Source: Myxococcales bacterium (lineage in GTDB: Bacteria > Myxococcota_A > Polyangia > Polyangiales > JAFGIB01). Taken from it: a stretch of 64,000 nucleotides of DNA. The stretch is from the NCBI GenBank assembly GCA_029880325.1, contig JAOUOP010000009.1, positions 57,012 through 121,011 on the forward strand. The letters are read 5' to 3'. The position numbers were made by a program, and so were the translations under genes. The first letter of the stretch is position 1. Each line of letters starts with the position of its first letter. Below, in pieces: positions 39,606-48,139 of the stretch. The notes beneath the pieces are model-generated. The model was not told the DNA's origin. It did not search any database and saw only the letters and a list, made by a program, of their open reading frames with translations.

Positions 39606-40061
39606 GTGAGCGAAGAATGGGTCAACAATACTATCGAGGGTATGCGCGAGATCGCGCAAGCACTCAATTTGGGTCACTGTGAGTTCATCTCCCGGGACGG
39701 CAAGCTATCGGAGGGACTGGCCGGCGCCTACATCCCCGTGGTCGGTGACCGCGCAAACGTCCAGCTCGCCGTGCTCTCGAGCGCGCAGGGCAACAGGAAC
39801 ATGGCTCGCAGCCTCTTGCAGATGGATCCCGACGACGCTGACCTGACCAGCGAAGACGTGGCCGACGCCGTGTGCGAGATCTCGAACATGCTGGCTGGCC
39901 GCGTCAAGGCAGGCATGGCCCAGAAGGAACCCGGCCTACGCCTGGGCCTGCCGGTATTCATCGACGGTCGGCTCGAAGAAGGCAACGCCAGGAAGGTCAA
40001 CATCGTTCAAATGTCAGTCGCCAACGATCGTGTCTCGGTCATGGTGATGACCAACGCCTGA
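39606..40061 (+). CDS. CheX/CheC-like chemotaxis phosphatase family protein
   Basis: 151 aa from GTG 39606 (GGAG 6 nt upstream). EDVADAVCEISNMLAGRVKAGM resembles the CheX E..N...G motif region. The track ORF begins at 39486. Confidence 0.55.
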   Translation: MSEEWVNNTIEGMREIAQALNLGHCEFISRDGKLSEGLAGAYIPVVGDRANVQLAVLSSAQGNRNMARSLLQMDPDDADLTSEDVADAVCEISNMLAGRVKAGMAQKEPGLRLGLPVFIDGRLEEGNARKVNIVQMSVANDRVSVMVMTNA

Positions 40062-40275
40062 CCTCGACGCTCCGCAGAGGCTCGGTCCAGTCGCCGTCAC
40101 GACAGCAGAAAGTGCGCGTGATGCGCGCGCGGGCGGTCGTCTCCACGACCCGCGGCGAGCGCAGGTAATCGATGGTGAGCGTGATGGTCTTGGGTACCTT
40201 GACGGTGTCGCTCTGCATCAGCAGCTTGAAGATGGCGGCGCTCTCCATCAGCGGGCCGGCGGCTGCCACGGTTCT

Positions 40276-41028
40276 TCAAATGCCGTCGTCGTGGCAGTGG
40301 GAGATGCCCAACAGCGGTGCGATGCAGACCATGCCCTCGGGACAGCTCAACAGCGGTGCGAAGAGCACCGGCGTGCAGTCGAGCTTGCAGTAGCCCGCAT
40401 CGCAGACGACGGTCGCGTCATAGCTGCCCGCGGGCATCGTGCAGTCGCCGGCGTCGACGCAGGTGGGCGCGCAGACGCTGGCGTTGGCGGGGAATCCGGG
40501 CGTGATGACGCACTCGGAGGCGTCGCCACAGTCGGCGGTCGCCGCACAGGGGCGGTAGGGATCTTCGACCACGGCGGGCTCACCACCGGCACCGCCGCTG
40601 CCGGCCTGCACCACGCCGCCGCTGCCACCGGTGCCGCCGGTAGAAGAGGTGCCGCCACCGGTGCCGCCGACGGCATCGACGCCGCCATCGTCATCGCTCG
40701 TGCCGCCGCCGGTCGGGGGCGGCCGCGTGCTGCTGCCGCGGTCGCTGCCAGCGCTCGACATGTCGTCGGCGCCGCCCGCATCCGGCTTCGTGGACGTGAT
40801 CTCACGCGGCAATGCAATCGCCGTGGCGCAGTCGCATGGCCCCCAGCGCCGGTCCTCACCGCACACGCGCGCGCCTTGTCCGAGGCTACCGCAGTCGCAC
40901 TGCAAGACCACCCCGGGCACGCCACAGCGCTCGAAGAGTTCACAGCCACTGAGCGCGAGCGACACCAGCGACAACCCCAAGAGCAAGCCGAGACGCCCGA
41001 AACGCCCGCGCGCTGCAACCCGTCTCAT
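40276..41028 (-). CDS. Cys-rich secreted lipoprotein with Gly/Thr/Ser linker
   Basis: Signal LGLSLVSLALSGC (lipobox). An N-terminal Cys cluster, a GGTSDDDGG...GGTGGGTSSTGGTGGSGG linker and a C-terminal multi-Cys domain. Confidence 0.75.
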   Translation of the reverse strand: MRRVAARGRFGRLGLLLGLSLVSLALSGCELFERCGVPGVVLQCDCGSLGQGARVCGEDRRWGPCDCATAIALPREITSTKPDAGGADDMSSAGSDRGSSTRPPPTGGGTSDDDGGVDAVGGTGGGTSSTGGTGGSGGVVQAGSGGAGGEPAVVEDPYRPCAATADCGDASECVITPGFPANASVCAPTCVDAGDCTMPAGSYDATVVCDAGYCKLDCTPVLFAPLLSCPEGMVCIAPLLGISHCHDDGI

Positions 41029-41597
41029 GGCGCCTCCTCGCTCTGCGTTTCGCCGCTGAAGACCCAGCGGGCCAGGGCCTGGTAGCCGCTATCCTGATCG
41101 GTGCGGTAGATGTCGCGATCGTATGGGTCGACTCCGAAGTGACCGGCGCCACCGGCCTCCACGGCCAGGGGCTTGCGCAACAGCGGCGAGCTGTCGAGCG
41201 CGTTTTCGTCGATCATGGAACGGGCCAGCGAATGGGTGGTCGAGATCTCGGCGCCGGTGGGCTGGTCGAGCGCACCGGGGGTCTCGGTCTCCCCCGGCAG
41301 CCGCACCCGACCCGGACCGTAGACGCGGAAGAAGCGACCGCGGTCACCGTGGCAGGAGGGAAAGCCGCAGTCGCGCAAGAGCACGGGATAGACCTCGCGC
41401 TGGAATTGACCGAAGTCGCGCTTGACCATGCCCTCGGCGACGGCGTCGGACTGGCTGCAGGCCGGCACCGCGAGCACGCCCCACAAGAATACGAGCAAGC
41501 CCGCGATGGACCGGCCGGGTCGGCCCGGTGCGGCCGTTCGCGCGATGTTCACCGGACCCCAAAGCCCCTTGTCTTCGCGTCGAGACATGGCGGTCAT
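41025..41597 (-). CDS. Lipoprotein with CX4CH heme-like motif
   Basis: ATG 41597 forms an ATGA overlap with the upstream stop. Signal LLVFLWGVLAVPAC. Contains YPVLLRDCGFPSCHGD. Confidence 0.6.
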   Translation of the reverse strand: MTAMSRREDKGLWGPVNIARTAAPGRPGRSIAGLLVFLWGVLAVPACSQSDAVAEGMVKRDFGQFQREVYPVLLRDCGFPSCHGDRGRFFRVYGPGRVRLPGETETPGALDQPTGAEISTTHSLARSMIDENALDSSPLLRKPLAVEAGGAGHFGVDPYDRDIYRTDQDSGYQALARWVFSGETQSEEAP

Positions 41598-42391
41598 GGC
41601 TCCCATGCGAGGCGGGCGATCAGCAGGCGCTCCACGCTCTTGAAACGCCAGCCCCCGAGCGGCGCGAACGCGTGATTTTGGCGAAAGGCGATCGAGGCGC
41701 GAAAGGACGAACCGACCAGGGCGTCGAGTTCCCCGCGGCCACCGGCGGCGAAGCCCTGGCAGCAGGCTCCCTCGTCGGCCAGCTCGGAACTCATCCATGC
41801 GATCCACTGTAGCTCGGGTCCGACGCGAAGCGAGACGACGTCACCAAATCGCGCGCGCAGCTCGGCCCGGGCGCTGGGGCCGCCGAACTGGATCGGCTCC
41901 ACGCTGTACTGGCCGACCGTGGGCGCAAAGCTCAGCATCGACAGCCCGATGGGAATCGCAAGCCTCAGGGCCTCGGCCGTGGCGCCGAGCCGGATCACGG
42001 GCGCCAACGTGAACTCACCGCGCTGAAAGCGCGCGGGCACCTCCTCCGGCAGCCCGAAGAGCGGCTCGACACGCATCGTCAGCCCGAGCGAGCTGGCGTA
42101 GTTCAGGGCGATGTCGAGGGAAAACTGGCGCCTGGGCTGCACGTGCACCCCCAGGGCCACCTCTGCGGCGCCGAAGACGGTGGTGGGCATCAGCTCAACC
42201 CCGGCTCCCGCCGGCCGCTCGTAGGCGAGGCTGCCAAAGCCAAGGCCGGCGCTGCTGCGCAGTTGGAGCGCGCGCTGGGGCTCCGAGACCGAGGCCGCGG
42301 CCGAGACCGCCGAAGCGTCCTGGGCCACGGCAACACCGACGCACGACAGCGCCATCAGCAACGACCCAAGCCACAAGCCGCGCGTGCTCAT
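41594..42391 (-). CDS. Predicted outer-membrane beta-barrel protein
   Basis: Signal peptide ending VAVAQD and an alternating hydrophobic beta-strand pattern throughout. No family recognised. Confidence 0.45.
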   Translation of the reverse strand: MSTRGLWLGSLLMALSCVGVAVAQDASAVSAAASVSEPQRALQLRSSAGLGFGSLAYERPAGAGVELMPTTVFGAAEVALGVHVQPRRQFSLDIALNYASSLGLTMRVEPLFGLPEEVPARFQRGEFTLAPVIRLGATAEALRLAIPIGLSMLSFAPTVGQYSVEPIQFGGPSARAELRARFGDVVSLRVGPELQWIAWMSSELADEGACCQGFAAGGRGELDALVGSSFRASIAFRQNHAFAPLGGWRFKSVERLLIARLAWEP

Positions 42392-43545
42392 AGCGACAGC
42401 TCCGTCGCGATCGTGGCCTCGATGGCGCTGACGTCGTCGAGCAGCGCGAAGGCATCGTAGAGGTAGTAGCTGGGCGAGATGCGCAGGGCGATCCCAAGCT
42501 CGCTGCCCAGCTCGTCCAGGGCGGTGCGCTTGGAAAGCTCCAGCGCCAGGCGGTGGCTGGAGAGGGCCGACAGCTCTTTGTCGCCGGTGTAATAGGCGCC
42601 GGCGTAGTCGGCCGGATAGAGCGACTCGAAGTGGGCGGCGCTGCCCTGGGTGTAGAAGCGATAGGCGGCCGACACCAACCAGCCTTCGCCAAAGCCGAAG
42701 GCGGCGTCGGCGTCCAGCGTGTGCGACATCAACTCCCAGTCATCGATGTAGAAACGGTAACCGAGTCCGGCCGAGAGCCCATCGCTGAGCGCATGGCGGC
42801 CGCTGAGGGCAAGCGCGTGGCGCAGGCGCGTATTGGGGTTGTTCTCGGGCTTGCAGGCCTTCACCGGCAGCACGCAGCCGCCGAGCCACGCCTGGGGCGT
42901 TTCGCCAAAGCGCACGGAGCGATAGGGACTGGCCTGGTAGCCTTCGAGATGGGTCAGCTCGTAGGCGGCGCTGACAAAGGCCTCGGGCGTGAGCACCTGA
43001 TTGAACGACGCCCGCATGCCGAGCTGGCGCAGGGGTCGGTCGAAGCTCGGATCGCCCGCGCGCCCGACGCGATCGAAATAGGCTCGGGCCGTCAGCGCCA
43101 GCGTGGTCGCCTTTTCGGCCAGGCTCTGCGACAGGCCCAGGCTACCGCCGTGGGACTCGTAGTCGTATTCGACGGAGTAACGGTAGGAAGCGCCCAGGAT
43201 GCTATCGCCCAGACCGTGCTCGGCGCTGACGTCGATCTCGTCGCGCTGCTCCACCACGTATTTGTAGTTGCCGCGGGCGTCGAGGGAGGCCGCGGTGCGC
43301 ACGTCGATGGAGGCGCTGCTCCAGACGTCGACGGTGTAGACCAGGTCCAGGCGCGAGCTCTCAGCGAGCGGGGCACCCACGCGCAGCCGCGGCGTGACCA
43401 CGGTGGTGTTGTCGGTGTCGGAGCGCACGTATAGCGCGGTGCTCGCCTGGGTGGGATTGCTCTCCTGGGCGAGCCCCGGAGCACAGACGGCCAGCACGAG
43501 CGAGGCCAACGGCGCCGCCGCGAGCATCCGCGACTCAGTTGCCAA
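42388..43545 (-). CDS. DUF3570-like outer-membrane barrel protein
   Basis: Signal peptide, then ALYVRSDTDNTTVVTPRLRV and repeated Y/F-rich strands ending ...ATIATELSL. The family name is recalled from its usual pairing with DUF4266. Confidence 0.5.
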   Translation of the reverse strand: MATESRMLAAAPLASLVLAVCAPGLAQESNPTQASTALYVRSDTDNTTVVTPRLRVGAPLAESSRLDLVYTVDVWSSASIDVRTAASLDARGNYKYVVEQRDEIDVSAEHGLGDSILGASYRYSVEYDYESHGGSLGLSQSLAEKATTLALTARAYFDRVGRAGDPSFDRPLRQLGMRASFNQVLTPEAFVSAAYELTHLEGYQASPYRSVRFGETPQAWLGGCVLPVKACKPENNPNTRLRHALALSGRHALSDGLSAGLGYRFYIDDWELMSHTLDADAAFGFGEGWLVSAAYRFYTQGSAAHFESLYPADYAGAYYTGDKELSALSSHRLALELSKRTALDELGSELGIALRISPSYYLYDAFALLDDVSAIEATIATELSL

Positions 43546-45241
43546 GCTGGCCCTCCTCGGACGCGGGCGCCCAGCTCAGGTGACCGCTGTCGATGGCCCC
43601 TTCGACGTCGACCGCCAGGTCCTGCTCGTAGCCCTCCCAGGCCTTGGAAAACTCGAAGCTCTGCAGCTCGCCGGGTTCCTTGTCGGACTCGGCCACTTCC
43701 AGAAAGAGCATGTAGCGGCCATCGGGCACGGGCATGCCGTCGAGGTCGAGCCCGCGCCACAGACCCAGGTGCTCTTTGTCGTGGTCGGGCCGGGTGGCGC
43801 CCGTCATCACGTCGGGTCCGGTCTTCTCGGGGCAGGCGTGGTCCTGGTAGTAGACCAGGCCCGGCAAACGCAGCACGGCGCTGAGCTCGATGGTGGCGAC
43901 GTAGTGACCGTCCTCGGTCTCGATCCAGACGGCGGTGCAATTCTTCGGCGCGTAGCGGCCGCCGAGCGAGCGCGTGGTGAAGCTCAGGGTCAGCACGCCC
44001 TCCGTAATGACGCCGGCATCGGGCGGCAGGGCCAGGGGCTTGCAGCGATCACCCAGGCCCGCACCGGGCGTGGGCGTGTCGGTGGGATCGCTGGCGCCCA
44101 GCCGACTGCCGGGCGTGTAGAGCCCCGCGCTCGGATAGGCAGTTGGCTTGACCGGCGGGTCGTCCAACTCACAGCCAAACAAACCCAATGACAAGCCCCA
44201 TGACAAGCCCCATGACAAACCCCATGACAAACCCAATAACAAACCCAGCATCCGCGAACGCGAAGGGGCCGTCGGGCGCCAGAGCCGCCGTCCCGGCGCG
44301 CGACGCCACACCCTCAGCAGGCCCAGCGCCGCCAGCAGGGCAAACCACGGACCGTCCGCACTCGAGTTCACCGGGCCCAGCGAGCAACCGCCGCGCAACA
44401 CGCGCTGGTACTTTCCCGCCTCCGACGAACGCTCCAGGATGGGAATGGTGACCTCGTCGACCGAATCGCGGTCGAAGCTACCCGAGAGGGCTTCGGTCGC
44501 GACAAAGCCGGCGGAAAACCAGATCGGCCCTTCCCAGCTCGACGGAGCCGTCCAGCGCATTCGAACCTGATGGGCGCCGCAGGAGTTGAGCGCCACCACA
44601 CAACGCTGGCCCAGCTGGCGCGATTCACAACGCATGATGCCGGTGGAGTCGGGCTTGATGCGCCGGGCCGGCAACCCGGGGCGTACCTGGTAGAGGTTGA
44701 CCCCGAGACGTGGCTTGAGGTTCGGCCGCGTCATCTCGCACAGCTCATCGGGCCCGGCGGCGGACGCATCGATCTCGATGCTGCCCGAGGCCTTGCCACT
44801 TTCGGCCACCAGCTCCGCAACCAATCCCACCGCCGGTGTCATCGCCTCGGGGTCGTGGGGCTGGGTGGGATCGGGCCGGAGTTCGCGCCAGCGGGCGGCG
44901 AATTCTGGCCAACTCAGGGCGATCTCCTGCTGCTGGCCGGGCTCGTAGCCAGTCAGGGGCAGCCCCGCAACGTAGAGCGGAAACTCGCGCAGCCCGGGGC
45001 TCGCCTGGTGGCAGACGCTGCAGCTGAAGCCTTCCGCCGGCGATCCCGTGAACCAGCGGCCACCACCACCGCCGGCCGAAGCCAGCTCCGCATAGGCGTC
45101 GGGTGTGGAGTAGGCCTGGGCCGGAGCGCTGCTCAGGACCGTGAGCGCCACGGGCACGAGGGACACCACAAACGCCGCAAACACCGACCGGCGAAGTCGG
45201 AACTCGGGACAGCGCACAAGGTTTCCGTGCGGGCTTCGCAT
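43535..45241 (-). CDS. Composite ORF: CXXCH protein with MYXO-CTERM-like sorting tail, read through into a DUF2271-like lipoprotein
   Basis: aa 1-320 carry a signal peptide, SCSVCH and the tail GGCSLGPVNSSADGPWFALLAALGLLRVWRR. aa 331-568 begin MLGLLLGLSWGLSWGLSWGLSLGLFGC (ATG 44251). They then contain YAPKNCTAVWIETEDGHYVATI...DVMTGATRP...VPDGRYMLFLEVAE. There is no stop between the two parts. Confidence 0.6.
   Translation of the reverse strand: MRSPHGNLVRCPEFRLRRSVFAAFVVSLVPVALTVLSSAPAQAYSTPDAYAELASAGGGGGRWFTGSPAEGFSCSVCHQASPGLREFPLYVAGLPLTGYEPGQQQEIALSWPEFAARWRELRPDPTQPHDPEAMTPAVGLVAELVAESGKASGSIEIDASAAGPDELCEMTRPNLKPRLGVNLYQVRPGLPARRIKPDSTGIMRCESRQLGQRCVVALNSCGAHQVRMRWTAPSSWEGPIWFSAGFVATEALSGSFDRDSVDEVTIPILERSSEAGKYQRVLRGGCSLGPVNSSADGPWFALLAALGLLRVWRRAPGRRLWRPTAPSRSRMLGLLLGLSWGLSWGLSWGLSLGLFGCELDDPPVKPTAYPSAGLYTPGSRLGASDPTDTPTPGAGLGDRCKPLALPPDAGVITEGVLTLSFTTRSLGGRYAPKNCTAVWIETEDGHYVATIELSAVLRLPGLVYYQDHACPEKTGPDVMTGATRPDHDKEHLGLWRGLDLDGMPVPDGRYMLFLEVAESDKEPGELQSFEFSKAWEGYEQDLAVDVEGAIDSGHLSWAPASEEGQLGN
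44184..44243. repeat. 12-bp tandem repeat, about 5 copies, coding (LSWG)n
   Basis: Plus strand cccaatgacaag / ccccatgacaag / ccccatgacaaa / ccccatgacaaa / cccaataacaaa. The repeat lies in-frame inside the internal signal peptide. Confidence 0.9.
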
Positions 45242-45294
45242 GGCAGCTCGGGGCCGGAGTCAGGGGGCGATTCGATCGTCGGGCGCGGACTCGA

Positions 45295-46542
45295 TCACGG
45301 CGCGGCAAGCGCGTTGATCCACGCCTCGACGGCTTTGATGCCCTCGGTGTCTACCACGCGGGAGCCGATGGGCGGCATCTGATCCTTGGGATTAGCGGGG
45401 TCGCGCATGCTGATGAGCTGGTAGAGCAGGCTGTCGGCCGCCGAGCCCGCCACGATGCGGGTTCCGTCGCTCCAGCGCGGGGTCTGGGCCGGCACGCCGA
45501 TGGTCGAAGTCAGCGCCTCGAAGTCCACCGGCGAGCGCCCGTCGAGGGCCTCCGGGGGCAGTCGCAGCCGCAGGTCGGAGGAGTAGCCCTCTGAAGCCGG
45601 GTTGCCGTTGTGGCAACTTACGCCGCAGTTGACGTGCAGATACCCCAGCGCTGCCACGCCCACGCCCGTGCCGTCGTCACCCAGCTCGAAGCTCTCGTCG
45701 CCGGGCGGCTCGGTCAGCAGGTCGTCGGCCTTTAGATCGGCCAGGCTCAGCCCCTCGGCTCCCGGCAGCGCCATCAGCACGCGCTCGAGGCCGAGCGCCC
45801 GGTCGGTGCGACCCTTGTGGCATTGGTCGCATTCCTTGGCGCTGGGGATGTAATAGGTGTCGCCGGCCACATCGACCTCGCCGCCGGCAAAGCGGGTGGC
45901 CTCGGTCTCGTCGTCGTTCCAGTGGTAGGAGGTCTTGAGCCAGAGCGTCGGGCTGACCTTCCAGTACAGGCGCGTCTCGACGCGCTTACCCTTCCACTTG
46001 AACTCCTTGAACATGCGCGTGTCGACGGGAAGCACCCAGGCGTCGGGGTCGGAGTTGTCGATCTTCGAGCCCTCCGGCAGGTAGACCCAGCGCTGCTTCT
46101 CGGCCCCGTCGGACCACAGCTTGTAGGCCGGGGTGAAGGGGCGAACGCCGGCGGCCAGCTCCTTGCTGCCAATGTCGGCGTAGAGCCCGGCGCAGGAGAG
46201 GGTCTCGTGGACCATGTTCACCGCCGGGTCGGGGCAGCCGGCCGGGGCCGGGGCGATGGTTCCGCCGCCACTTGCGGCGCTGTCTCCGCCGCCGCCACTC
46301 GAACTCGAGCCGCTGCCGCCACCCGAACTCGCCGTGGCTTCGCCGCCGCTGCCGCCGCTCCCCGAGCCGCTCGAATCACCATCCGCGGAGGCCGAGGTGC
46401 CGCCGTCCTTGCCGCGGCCGGCGCGGGCGGCGCTGGCGTCCCCGTCGCTGTCTTGATCGGTGGACTTGGCGCAGCCGTGCGTCCCCGCCCAGGTCAGCAG
46501 AGAAATGACGAGTGCCAAGATCGGCGTCCGACTCCAGCTCAC
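45295..46542 (-). CDS. Lipoprotein, diheme c-type cytochrome-like (SO_2930-family-like)
   Basis: GTG start. Signal ...LLTWAGTHGC and a Gly/Ser linker. LWSDGAEKQRWVYLPEGS...ETRLYWKV...SYHWNDDETEA. Heme motifs CDQCH and CGVSCH. Confidence 0.6.
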   Translation of the reverse strand: MSWSRTPILALVISLLTWAGTHGCAKSTDQDSDGDASAARAGRGKDGGTSASADGDSSGSGSGGSGGEATASSGGGSGSSSSGGGGDSAASGGGTIAPAPAGCPDPAVNMVHETLSCAGLYADIGSKELAAGVRPFTPAYKLWSDGAEKQRWVYLPEGSKIDNSDPDAWVLPVDTRMFKEFKWKGKRVETRLYWKVSPTLWLKTSYHWNDDETEATRFAGGEVDVAGDTYYIPSAKECDQCHKGRTDRALGLERVLMALPGAEGLSLADLKADDLLTEPPGDESFELGDDGTGVGVAALGYLHVNCGVSCHNGNPASEGYSSDLRLRLPPEALDGRSPVDFEALTSTIGVPAQTPRWSDGTRIVAGSAADSLLYQLISMRDPANPKDQMPPIGSRVVDTEGIKAVEAWINALAAP

Positions 46543-46624
46543 AACACGCTACTCCCGCCGCCCGACCGCAACGCCGACGCCCCCCCCGGGGGGGCGTCGC
46601 GCGCGGACGGGCGAGCCGTGGGCC

Positions 46625-47674
46625 CTACGGCGCCGGTACCGCCCCGTCCGCGCCACCCGGGGCCACGTAGGTGCCATCGGGCAGCAGGATGTCGCCCTGG
46701 CCGGTCGGGGTCAGCGAGCGCATGTAGATGATCAGGCCCGTGATCTCTTCCTCGGTGGCGTCCCACTTGTGGAAGTACTCGTAGGTCTCCTGATCGGTCA
46801 TGGCACCAAACATCTCGGGCAGGATGCGGAAGCCCACACCTTCGGGCTTGCTGCCGGTGGTCATGATGGCGCGCAGCTCCTCGTCGGAGAAGCGCGCGGC
46901 CTGGGTCGGGGTGTGCTGGATCTCGAAGTACTTGGCGCCCGAGGTGTGGCAGTTGTTGCAAGCCAAGCCCTCATCGGGCGGCGGTGGCATCCAGGTCGGA
47001 TCGAGCAGCGCCATGGCAAACGCTTCGAGGTCGACGGTCCCGAGATCGAGCTCGATGCCGTTGGCGTAGCGCGCCTCACCGGCGGCCCACTGCTCCGGCG
47101 TGGCGGAGGTCACGAACAGCGGCGCGGTGCCGCCGATGTCGCCGCTGCGGGCGGCGATGGTGATCTCGGGCACGTCCTCGACGATCGTAACCAGCACGCC
47201 CTCGTTGTCGGGGTCGGGGTCGAAGATGACGGCGCTGGCGGGGATCGCCGACCAGTCCGACAGCTCGATGGTCACCCCGTCTACGTAGACGGGGACCTGG
47301 AAGGTGTGCACGCCGTCGAAGGCCGAGTACATGGTGTCGTATACGAGCGTCAGCGCTTCCCAGTCGACGTTCGGGTCGAGCATCTCGGCGACCTCGGGCG
47401 GCACCTCGTTGGGAGGCGCGGTGCCTTCGCTCGCGCTGTCGCTGCCGGTGCCGTCGTTGGAGGTGGCCGGCGTCGTGCCACTGCCGTCGGTGGCGCCGTC
47501 GGTGGTGGCGCCGCCGCCCCCGGCCCCGTCCGCGGTGCCGGACGTATTGGACGGACCATCGGCGAGGGTCGTGCCCACGGGGTCATCGTTGGCCGCGCTG
47601 CAGCCCCAGGATACCAAAAAGCTCGTCGCAGCGAGGGCGATGCCCGGCCACTGCCTCAGTCGATTGCGTTGCAT
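46625..47674 (-). CDS. Lipoprotein with C-terminal monoheme cytochrome c domain
   Basis: ATG 47674 (MQRNRLRQWPGIALAATSFLVSWGC). CNNCH, followed by FSDEELRAIMTTG...ITGLIIYMRSL, typical of class I cytochrome c. Confidence 0.65.
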   Translation of the reverse strand: MQRNRLRQWPGIALAATSFLVSWGCSAANDDPVGTTLADGPSNTSGTADGAGGGGATTDGATDGSGTTPATSNDGTGSDSASEGTAPPNEVPPEVAEMLDPNVDWEALTLVYDTMYSAFDGVHTFQVPVYVDGVTIELSDWSAIPASAVIFDPDPDNEGVLVTIVEDVPEITIAARSGDIGGTAPLFVTSATPEQWAAGEARYANGIELDLGTVDLEAFAMALLDPTWMPPPPDEGLACNNCHTSGAKYFEIQHTPTQAARFSDEELRAIMTTGSKPEGVGFRILPEMFGAMTDQETYEYFHKWDATEEEITGLIIYMRSLTPTGQGDILLPDGTYVAPGGADGAVPAP

Positions 47675-47854
47675 CTGAGTCCTCCACGATTCGCGGCGAC
47701 CCGACCGTGCCTGTGTCCCAAAGCAGTCCACGAGCGCTGTACTCGCTCGCCATCGAATGCTCGGAACCAAGGCCTTCCCATACCTGCGAATCCACTACCT
47801 ACAAAACCGACCCGAACCTACCCGCAAGTGGAAGAGAATGCTACACCCCTGGGG

Positions 47855-48139
47855 ATGCCGATCCCTAGAACGCAAAAGTCGCGAGAGGCCGCGATCGCTG
47901 GAAAACGAGCGGCGGCTCGCGGTTTCGGTGCGCGCTTCGCCCTGCCCGTCTTGCTCGTGCTTTCGGCCGCGCCGGCCTGCGCCACGGTCGCCCCCTACGA
48001 GCGCGAACGCCTGGCAAAAGCCGACATGCAAGAGGGCCGTAACCCGGACCTGCGCGCCGGCGAAGAGCATGCCACCGCCTACCGCGAAGGCTCGAGCGGG
48101 GCCACCGGCAGCAGCGGCGGCGGCTGCGGCTGCAACTGA
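47855..48139 (+). CDS. DUF4266-like small lipoprotein
   Basis: 94 aa from ATG 47855. Signal ALPVLLVLSAAPAC, then VAPYERERLAKADM and the terminal GGGCGCN typical of this family (recalled). It is the only credible part of track ORF 46460..48139. Confidence 0.6.
   Translation: MPIPRTQKSREAAIAGKRAAARGFGARFALPVLLVLSAAPACATVAPYERERLAKADMQEGRNPDLRAGEEHATAYREGSSGATGSSGGGCGCN

Follow-up and report, generated by a model that had tools for sequence, protein, structure and literature searches.

What does a tightly packed set of genes do when every one of its products carries an export signal and several of them carry cofactor-type motifs? The question is raised by positions 40276-48139 of a 64,000-nucleotide stretch of a Myxococcales bacterium (GenBank assembly GCA_029880325.1, contig JAOUOP010000009.1, positions 57,012 to 121,011; hereafter the window), where seven minus-strand genes (g1-g7) lie beside one divergent plus-strand gene (g8). 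The initial annotation, made from the sequence alone, proposed an uncharacterised outer-envelope redox machine, and the general redox idea stands. The cluster is, however, a variant of something already described: a lineage-specific version of the functionally unsolved flavinylation system composed of ApbE, DUF3570, DUF4266 and thioredoxin-like proteins. We draw this conclusion because DUF3570 and DUF2271 proteins are known ApbE substrates and their attachment motifs are kept here. The variant is probably, and we say so with moderate confidence, a Polyangia-specific relay that uses flavin and haem to move electrons across the outer envelope.

In the described system genes for ApbE, a DUF3570 protein, a thioredoxin-like protein and a DUF4266 protein are clustered, often with DsbD, and DUF3570 and DUF2271 proteins have been shown experimentally to be flavinylated by ApbE at [S/T]GA[S/T] motifs (Meheust, Huang, Rivera-Lugo, Banfield & Light 2021, eLife 10:e66878, PMC8238504). 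Searches with Pfam hidden Markov models place g4 (42388-43545, minus strand) in DUF3570 (PF12094; 3.2e-37, 128.8 bits against a cut-off of 25) and g8 (47855-48139, plus strand) in DUF4266 (PF14086; 1.5e-18), in agreement with the initial annotation, which was also right that thioredoxin-like and flavin-transferase genes are the usual neighbours of these two families (PMC8238504) and that cytochrome-like proteins take their place in cis here; none of the eight cluster genes encodes ApbE, a thioredoxin-like (PF13899-type) or TlpA protein, or DsbD. Its division of the seven minus-strand ORFs into eight protein modules, all with export signals like the divergent gene, holds as well. Read from the sequence, type-I signal peptides are found in g3, g4 and g5a, and lipoboxes in g1 (LSGC), g2 (VPAC) and g5b (LFGC) and also in g6, g7 and g8, where g5a and g5b are the two halves of the g5 open reading frame (ORF). 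From g5 through g1 the genes overlap by 4-11 nt, and gaps of 53 and 82 nt flank g6. No Pfam or NCBIfam family matches g1, g2, g3 or g7, and PDB sequence searches with g2, g3, g4, g6 and g7 returned nothing.

The same genes recur together elsewhere. By tblastn and reading of ORFs, the genome contains four paralogous modules (on contigs C79, C87, C137 and C131), every one of them with g5a, g5b, DUF3570, g3 and g2, together with two DUF4266-DUF3570 clusters of simpler make-up (C132 and C8); behind the one on C132 come a lipoprotein with two CxxCH motifs and a g2-like gene. A search of one genome per species, using an alignment of four g2 sequences as query, yielded 52 related loci of 20 kb, and in almost all of these g2 lies beside g5a, DUF4266, DUF3570, g3 and g5b. 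All but two are in myxobacteria or 'delta proteobacteria', and the finely classified ones are Polyangia (Sandaracinaceae, Nannocystaceae including Enhygromyxa salina and Plesiocystis pacifica, Haliangiales, Kofleriaceae and Polyangiales); two carry a Pseudomonadota label, and one contig belongs to Thermodesulfobacteriota. The core set is DUF3570, DUF4266, g2, g5a, g5b and g3, and g6 and g7 accompany it only in the closest relatives. Redox genes are frequent neighbours: TlpA/redoxin proteins are present in 12 of the 52 loci, multihaem cytochromes of about 1000 residues with weak MtrC-type matches in eight, and PSCyt1-like CxxCH lipoproteins in 15, while DsbD_TM is found in none. Co-occurrence of DUF3570 and DUF4266 with genes for haem-motif proteins (g2 and g5a), a kind of link that the initial annotation had suggested examining, is seen both in the four modules and in the 52 loci.

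Four exported proteins of the cluster (g2, g5a, g6 and g7) carry conserved haem-attachment-type motifs, with two sites in g6. Among some 3000 long ORFs from this genome the background is 2.0% for CxxCH and 0.8% for CX3-4CH, so that four adjacent genes with such motifs are far beyond chance. This agrees with the four to five haem-motif lipoproteins originally counted insofar as there are four motif proteins; g5a, given its type-I signal peptide and MYXO-CTERM-like tail, is not a lipoprotein. The family assignments stood up to checking (DUF2271 at the level of the family), and so did the haem-type motifs, which do not vary in 27-52 homologues per family.

The small lipoprotein g2 (41025-41588, minus strand) belongs to the core and is a putative c-type haem domain from a family that has no Pfam model. 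Its motif CGFPSCH (CX4CH; 41349-41369) is part of an invariant YPxLxRDCGFxxCH, and a second motif, KPLxxxxGGxxHxG, lies at 41133-41174; the Cys/Cys/His of the first and the His of the second are invariant in 48 homologues. There are 677 database homologues, all named hypothetical and none with Pfam domains. An AlphaFold2 model (predicted local distance difference test score, pLDDT, 84) is all-alpha, with a long helix that terminates at CX4CH and a C-terminal helix. The genome has only two matches to PSCyt1, the planctomycete-type cytochrome domain of which g2 was considered a possible divergent form. Elsewhere in the Polyangia, tandem g2 domains form the N-terminus of proteins of 900-1100 residues adjoining g2-DUF4266-DUF3570.

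The lipoproteins g7 and g6 are accessory. g7 (46625-47674, minus strand, with an alternative ORF start at 47770) is from an unannotated family of 141 homologues, all hypothetical, and has a CNNCH motif (46946-46960) in its C-terminal domain; C239, C242 and H243, together with H254 and H302, are invariant in 27 sequences. This lipoprotein and the CX4CH lipoprotein g2 are both as the initial annotation described them. g6 (45295-46542, minus strand) is a homologue of the SO2930-family dihaem cytochromes c; its alignment to TIGR03806 (3.2e-38) covers positions 3-314 of the 314 in the model, with a score of 131.7 bits that is far under the curated cut-off of 313.3. Both motifs reported for it are present, CDQCH at 45817-45831 and CGVSCH at 45610-45627, the latter being CX3CH and not CxxCH, and a QMPP motif lies at 45370-45381. 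ECDQCH, NCGVSCHN and QMPP are kept in seven homologues, and a paralogue on contig C61 has a canonical CGSCH at the second site. g6 is joined to the module only at C87 and at the related loci L015, L016, L017 and L020.

The choice-of-anchor V domain protein g5a (44252-45241, minus strand) has a signal peptide ending in AQA ahead of a mature N-terminal Tyr, a predicted Reeler-like beta-sandwich, an invariant CSVCH motif (45008-45022) and a MYXO-CTERM-like tail GGC...RVWRR (GGCSLGP...LLRVWRR; 44300-44392). Its 43 homologues share a conserved GGGGGRxFTGSPxDGxxCxVCH in which the Cys/Cys/His are invariant, and in all 43 an aromatic residue (Y in 21, F in 21, W in one) comes after the AxA signal-peptidase site, with the invariant CxxCH about 30 residues beyond this aromatic mature residue 1. 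The choice-of-anchor V model NF041895 is matched by 41 of them at E<=0.05 (best 7.3e-13); the window's own copy scores 15-18 bits against a cut-off of 42. MYXO-CTERM (TIGR03901) is matched by 14 and MXAN_6652_fam by 11. The AlphaFold2 model (pLDDT 87, predicted template-modelling score 0.85) is a beta-sandwich in which the N-terminal 30 residues are of high confidence, and the best match, both in the profile search (4e-4) and in the fold search (probability 1.0, template-modelling score 0.5-0.6 on the target, approximately 14% identity), is the reeler domain of F-spondin. Cytochrome f is absent among the 50 fold matches listed for the model.

Candidate flavin sites are found in two proteins. 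Near the N-terminus of g4, which has a type-I signal peptide, are tandem flavinylation-type motifs, DVWSSAS-IDVRTAAS (43285-43329), and the family pattern is DxW[TS][SG]AS[IV]D[IV]xTAA[TS], with D, A and S/T invariant in 35-37 homologues and in all six paralogues of the genome. The usual motif Gly is mostly replaced, the first site being [TS][SG]AS with S in 29 of 35 and the second TAA[TS]. The lipoprotein g5b (43535-44251, minus strand), which is in frame with g5a with no intervening stop, has a signal peptide with the lipobox LFGC at 44171-44251 and a single flavinylation-type motif, DVMTGAT (43793-43813), whose pattern D..[TS]xAT is invariant across 19 homologues. The earlier description of this protein as DUF2271-like is correct at the level of the family, in which 17 of 18 members match PF10029 (best 2e-13) and database homologues have precomputed PF10029 matches; the window's copy is below the Pfam cut-off of 27.3 bits, scoring 18.8 as part of the whole ORF and 22 alone.

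ApbE, though absent from the cluster, is not lost. The genome has two ApbE genes, one at the end of an nqr operon (C106) and the other on C19; because the latter is stand-alone and has a lipoprotein signal (LLAC), it is a plausible trans-acting enzyme. TlpA-type genes, as noted above, likewise persist at related loci. Of 151 sampled genomes of the class, 61 have a g2-type match; ApbE is present in 60 of these 61 and in 134 of the 151 overall, a comparison that tests a necessary condition only. One relative (G002) carries ApbE on the same strand as DUF3570-DUF4266-g2 and about 3 kb away.

The remaining core proteins are g3 and g8. g3 (41594-42391, minus strand) is exported, with a type-I signal, and is predicted to be beta-rich and possibly an outer-membrane barrel; it is core-associated, with paralogues in all four modules of the genome. 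Two outer-membrane barrels, g3 and g4, had been predicted. Both have more beta-amphipathic windows (0.15 in g3 and 0.09 in g4) than shuffled sequences (0.02) and neither has transmembrane helices, so that this crude amphipathicity test agrees with the prediction and fits two barrels, though it is not proof. A relationship of g3 to DUF3570 as a half-size version of it was considered and dropped, as hhalign of g3 against DUF3570 gave none. The DUF4266 lipoprotein g8, transcribed divergently from g7, ends in GGGCGCN (48116-48136, plus strand), a CxC tail, and the GGCGCN C-terminus is at least 90% conserved in 40 DUF4266 homologues; the divergent arrangement is also found at L015.

The g5 gene has an unusual structure. 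It is a single ORF of 568 residues (43535-45241) in which the g5a tail and its Arg cluster run in frame into the g5b signal peptide, and since the ORF continues into g5b the MYXO-CTERM-like tail is internal in the window. There is no obvious ribosome-binding site before the internal ATG at the junction (44171-44392), and the g5b signal peptide is made of 12-bp repeats (LSWG, three to four times). At the closest orthologues, L015 and L016, a stop and a frame change at the junction keep the two genes separate, and the g5a-g5b fusion is missing from 46 of the 47 g5a ORFs of the fetched loci. An assembly artefact was considered and rejected, as the same architecture is found in many independent sequences: the in-frame g5a-DUF2271 layout is present in 25 of the best 120 database homologues of g5a, each of them 508-570 residues long and with PF10029. 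Other g5a fusions are with DUF4266 (P0244, P0246 and P0340) and with DUF3570 (P0288 and L027), and in each of the six fusion proteins examined the sorting tail and Arg cluster are still present, with a new signal peptide behind them. In the DUF3570 fusion at L027 (10399-12771) the tail leads into a linker, about 170 residues long, composed of (GS)n and (HA/DV)n dipeptide repeats. These fusions link the component families functionally, and they suggest that the fused g5 is a precursor cut into two envelope proteins, a cleavage that may be performed by myxosortase and signal peptidase II. We found no published description of the g2 family, of these fusions, or of the choice-of-anchor V protein's fold or motifs.

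The electron-relay reading is built on the export signals, synteny, paralogy, motif conservation, two predicted folds and the availability of ApbE; the cofactors, the topology and the direction of electron flow are proposals. In such a relay the C19 lipoprotein ApbE would attach flavin mononucleotide in trans to the two tandem DUF3570 sites and to the one DUF2271-like site. In the periplasm, g2, g6 and g7 would be matured as c-type haem proteins and would shuttle electrons between the respiratory pool of the inner membrane and the flavinylated barrel, where the DUF4266 lipoprotein could supply its C-terminal Cys-x-Cys as a redox or ligand site. The endpoint would be g5a, as a haem-c protein with a Reeler-like sandwich held on the cell surface by its MYXO-CTERM anchor. 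Cytochrome f uses the N-terminal amine of its Tyr1 as sixth ligand of the haem, and the N-terminal amine of g5a may ligate haem in the same style; this is speculation by analogy. Candidates for the external substrate are ferric iron, another metal, or an oxidant, and g6, g7 and g1 are lineage-specific additions to the core. A bolder form of the proposal is a new outer-membrane conduit, in which a DUF3570 barrel with two covalent flavins, plugged or capped by the CxC tail of DUF4266 and served by periplasmic mono- and dihaem lipoproteins, would deliver electrons to a surface Reeler protein with amine-ligated haem. In part of the lineage two of the parts would be made as a single polyprotein, whose internal MYXO-CTERM and lipoprotein signals would be processed by myxosortase and signal peptidase II to give a surface protein and a periplasmic lipoprotein at 1:1. 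As a whole this conduit we regard as doubtful.

Several points weigh against the relay, and the rival explanations draw upon them. Flavin and haem are predicted only, for every protein of the cluster, as are the barrel form of g3 and g4 and the position of g5a at the cell surface. An inner-membrane electron entry point is not encoded near the cluster: the sole DsbD_TM gene of the genome (C79:144552-146676, 471 residues, 1.8e-45), which is beside a TlpA-like lipoprotein gene, is on the cluster's contig, 40 kb from the cluster and about 24 kb past the window end. On the haem side, CX4CH is an unusual haem motif and the g2 sequence carrying it has no PDB match, a Foldseek search of the g2 model against PDB folds gave zero matches, known cytochrome folds included, and the 43 g5a homologues have no second invariant haem ligand, either His or Met. 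The lack of a cytochrome fold match for g2 and of a second conserved ligand in g5a would suit an account in which the cluster handles thiols or a metal such as copper, with metal binding or thiol-disulfide cycling at the Cys-x-Cys of DUF4266 and at the Cys-x(2-4)-Cys-His motifs in g2 and g5a, and with DUF3570 acting as a flavin-assisted outer-membrane gate for the metal. The canonical partners of DUF3570 and DUF4266 are, moreover, thiol proteins (TlpA/thioredoxin-like proteins and DsbD), TlpA-type proteins being retained in the loci counted above, and Cys-modifying enzymes of the MbnB/TglH/ChrH type are encoded within 20 kb in five related loci. TlpA-type proteins, however, also serve apocytochrome reduction; the signature of haem c attachment is an invariant His that immediately follows the second Cys, and it is found here in four different families; g6, a homologue of a dihaem cytochrome family, retains the Met ligand motif of that family; eight loci have bona fide multihaem cytochromes alongside the module; and Met/His-rich copper motifs were not seen in any of the eight proteins. 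We consider thiol or metal handling unlikely, though it is the alternative that survives best.

On the flavin side, ApbE is missing from the cluster and from all 52 related loci, one g2-positive genome (G066, 95% complete) has no detectable ApbE, and the DUF3570 attachment motifs lack the usual Gly (SSAS and TAAS), whereas flavinylation has been shown only at SGA[ST]-type sites. These observations, together with the DUF2271 score of the window's copy under the Pfam cut-off, would also be expected of a degenerate, cofactor-free descendant of the system, in which the DUF3570 and DUF2271-like proteins are without flavin and have a structural or transport role in the outer membrane. Set against such decay are the D, A and S/T of the motifs, whose invariance over deep divergence (33-60% identity) argues for retained function, the near-universal presence of ApbE in carriers and its occurrence once inside a related cluster, the stand-alone lipoprotein ApbE of this genome, which has no other obvious client, and the consistent co-location of redox partners. 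This descendant we think improbable, and more so than a thiol or metal function. That unrelated envelope genes are adjacent by accident and carry their motifs by chance is very improbable indeed and is effectively refuted by synteny and fusions. In its favour, a scan for promoters and terminators defines no operon (0 promoters, and terminators at background level). Against it, neighbouring genes overlap or adjoin one another, the set turns up again in four paralogous modules and at 52 loci, families are joined in single ORFs, and the motifs are invariant and rare in the proteome.

The cluster does lie between motility and chemotaxis genes, as the initial annotation stated. Its G+C content is 0.68-0.71 (window 40000-48000), compared with 0.63-0.66 (about 0.64) in the flanking motility/chemotaxis genes (CheX-like, CheR/CheB), and this difference of about 5 points is the sole hint that it was inserted from a foreign source. 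The outermost gene, g1 (40276-41028, minus strand), is an accessory Cys-rich lipoprotein with a low-complexity Gly/Ser linker; its homologues are confined to the syntenic loci L015 and L016, where the Cys pattern is kept.

Some further features of the paralogues and related loci can be noted. The simple cluster on C8 (1500-4808) contains the sixth DUF3570 gene of the genome, overlapping a DUF4266 gene, and is preceded by a gene for an exported protein of 643 residues with a weak DUF2271 match (E 0.0099) and a C-terminal CFVATAAYGSPLA...LRRLRD motif. On C61 (156976-159707) the most canonical SO2930-like dihaem paralogue is followed by a lipoprotein of 501 residues that resembles, by eye, a soluble glucose/sorbosone dehydrogenase-type propeller (HNGGMLAFGPDG). 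The large proteins with tandem g2 domains are encoded directly upstream of g2-DUF4266-DUF3570 at L067 (6463-9177), L068 (7192-10731) and L069 (6260-9451); they have two g2-like domains (CX4CH, with a CX5CH variant in L067) and a TolB-like propeller, and there is a weak match (1.1e-3) of the L067 protein to the alpha subunit of hydrazine synthase. The MbnB/TglH/ChrH-family (DUF692) genes, which encode Cys-modifying enzymes of ribosomally synthesised and post-translationally modified peptides (1.6e-90), are at L033 (6126-6962), L034 (2-640), L054 (9043-9984), L036 (11319-12611) and L059 (17793-18707), three of them directly adjacent to the module.

The DUF3570/DUF4266 system is widespread and its barrel is a known flavin carrier, yet the purpose of the system is unsolved. 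The variant described here adds parts to it: g2 and the choice-of-anchor V protein, each from an unannotated partner family in which cofactor-type motifs are sharply conserved, a predicted surface endpoint, optional multihaem cytochrome neighbours, and natural fusions. Because it is carried by cultured strains (Enhygromyxa salina SWB005, Plesiocystis pacifica SIR-1 and Nannocystaceae ST9), flavinylation in trans at motifs without Gly, haem binding by CX4CH, and surface exposure are all directly testable.

Comparison with the published clusters (PMC8238504) shows what is shared and what is not. As in those, DUF3570 has two tandem attachment-type motifs near its N-terminus, DUF4266 is a lipoprotein with a CxC, and all components are exported. 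Unlike them, this cluster lacks a thioredoxin-like protein and DsbD, has its ApbE in trans, and has the motif Gly replaced; it also adds the DUF2271-like lipoprotein, the CX4CH family, the choice-of-anchor V protein anchored by a sorting signal, another exported protein that is predicted to be beta-rich, and two more lipoproteins with haem motifs. No Polyangia genera appear in the text supplements of that study. Flavinylated DUF2271 proteins are otherwise known from PepSY-like/ApbE clusters (PMC8238504; AlphaFold survey PMC11334425), and the g5b family keeps a conserved D-x-x-[ST]-x-A-T site resembling the one at which flavinylation was shown in Amantichitinum ursilacus. In contrast to known DUF2271 proteins, g5b has a lipoprotein signal and a long N-terminal linker; in its family it frequently forms the rear half of a fusion with a MYXO-CTERM protein, and its gene does not adjoin ApbE, PepSY-like or DUF4198 genes.

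Homologues of g5a with JDVT-CTERM signals were noted in passing beside DUF4266, DUF3570 and TlpA (Haft 2023, bioRxiv 10.1101/2023.06.07.544157). Like the choice-of-anchor V (NF041895), MXAN_6652 and JDVT-CTERM proteins, the g5a homologues have interchangeable C-terminal sorting signals and lie beside DUF4266 and DUF3570, and to this family, whose function, cofactor and fold were previously undescribed, g5a adds a Reeler-like predicted fold, the invariant CxxCH and the invariant aromatic mature N-terminus. The likeness of g6 to the SO2930 family (TIGR03806) extends over the full model and includes both haem motifs and the MPP ligand motif; it differs in the residue inserted in its second motif (CGVSCH) and in that the usual partner gene is not adjacent. 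For g5a, the best class of fold and profile matches is the reeler domain, as in F-spondin and ferric-chelate reductase 1 (FRRS1), and the model resembles cytochrome f in being a predicted beta-sandwich with CxxCH about 30 residues after a conserved aromatic mature N-terminus.

Porin-cytochrome conduits such as MtrCAB of Shewanella and Pcc of Geobacter combine an outer-membrane barrel with periplasmic and surface redox proteins. Pfam and NCBIfam family searches found no homology to MtrA, MtrB or MtrC and no multihaem proteins in the window, and the comparison is one of how the parts would work: a barrel and its periplasmic and surface redox proteins are encoded together. Unlike in MtrCAB, the barrel here is an unrelated one that would itself bear flavin, and its partners have one or two haem motifs, not ten. 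If the relay reading is true, a large group of predatory bacteria of soil and sea would have, in this cluster, a flavin-based counterpart of the porin-cytochrome conduits.

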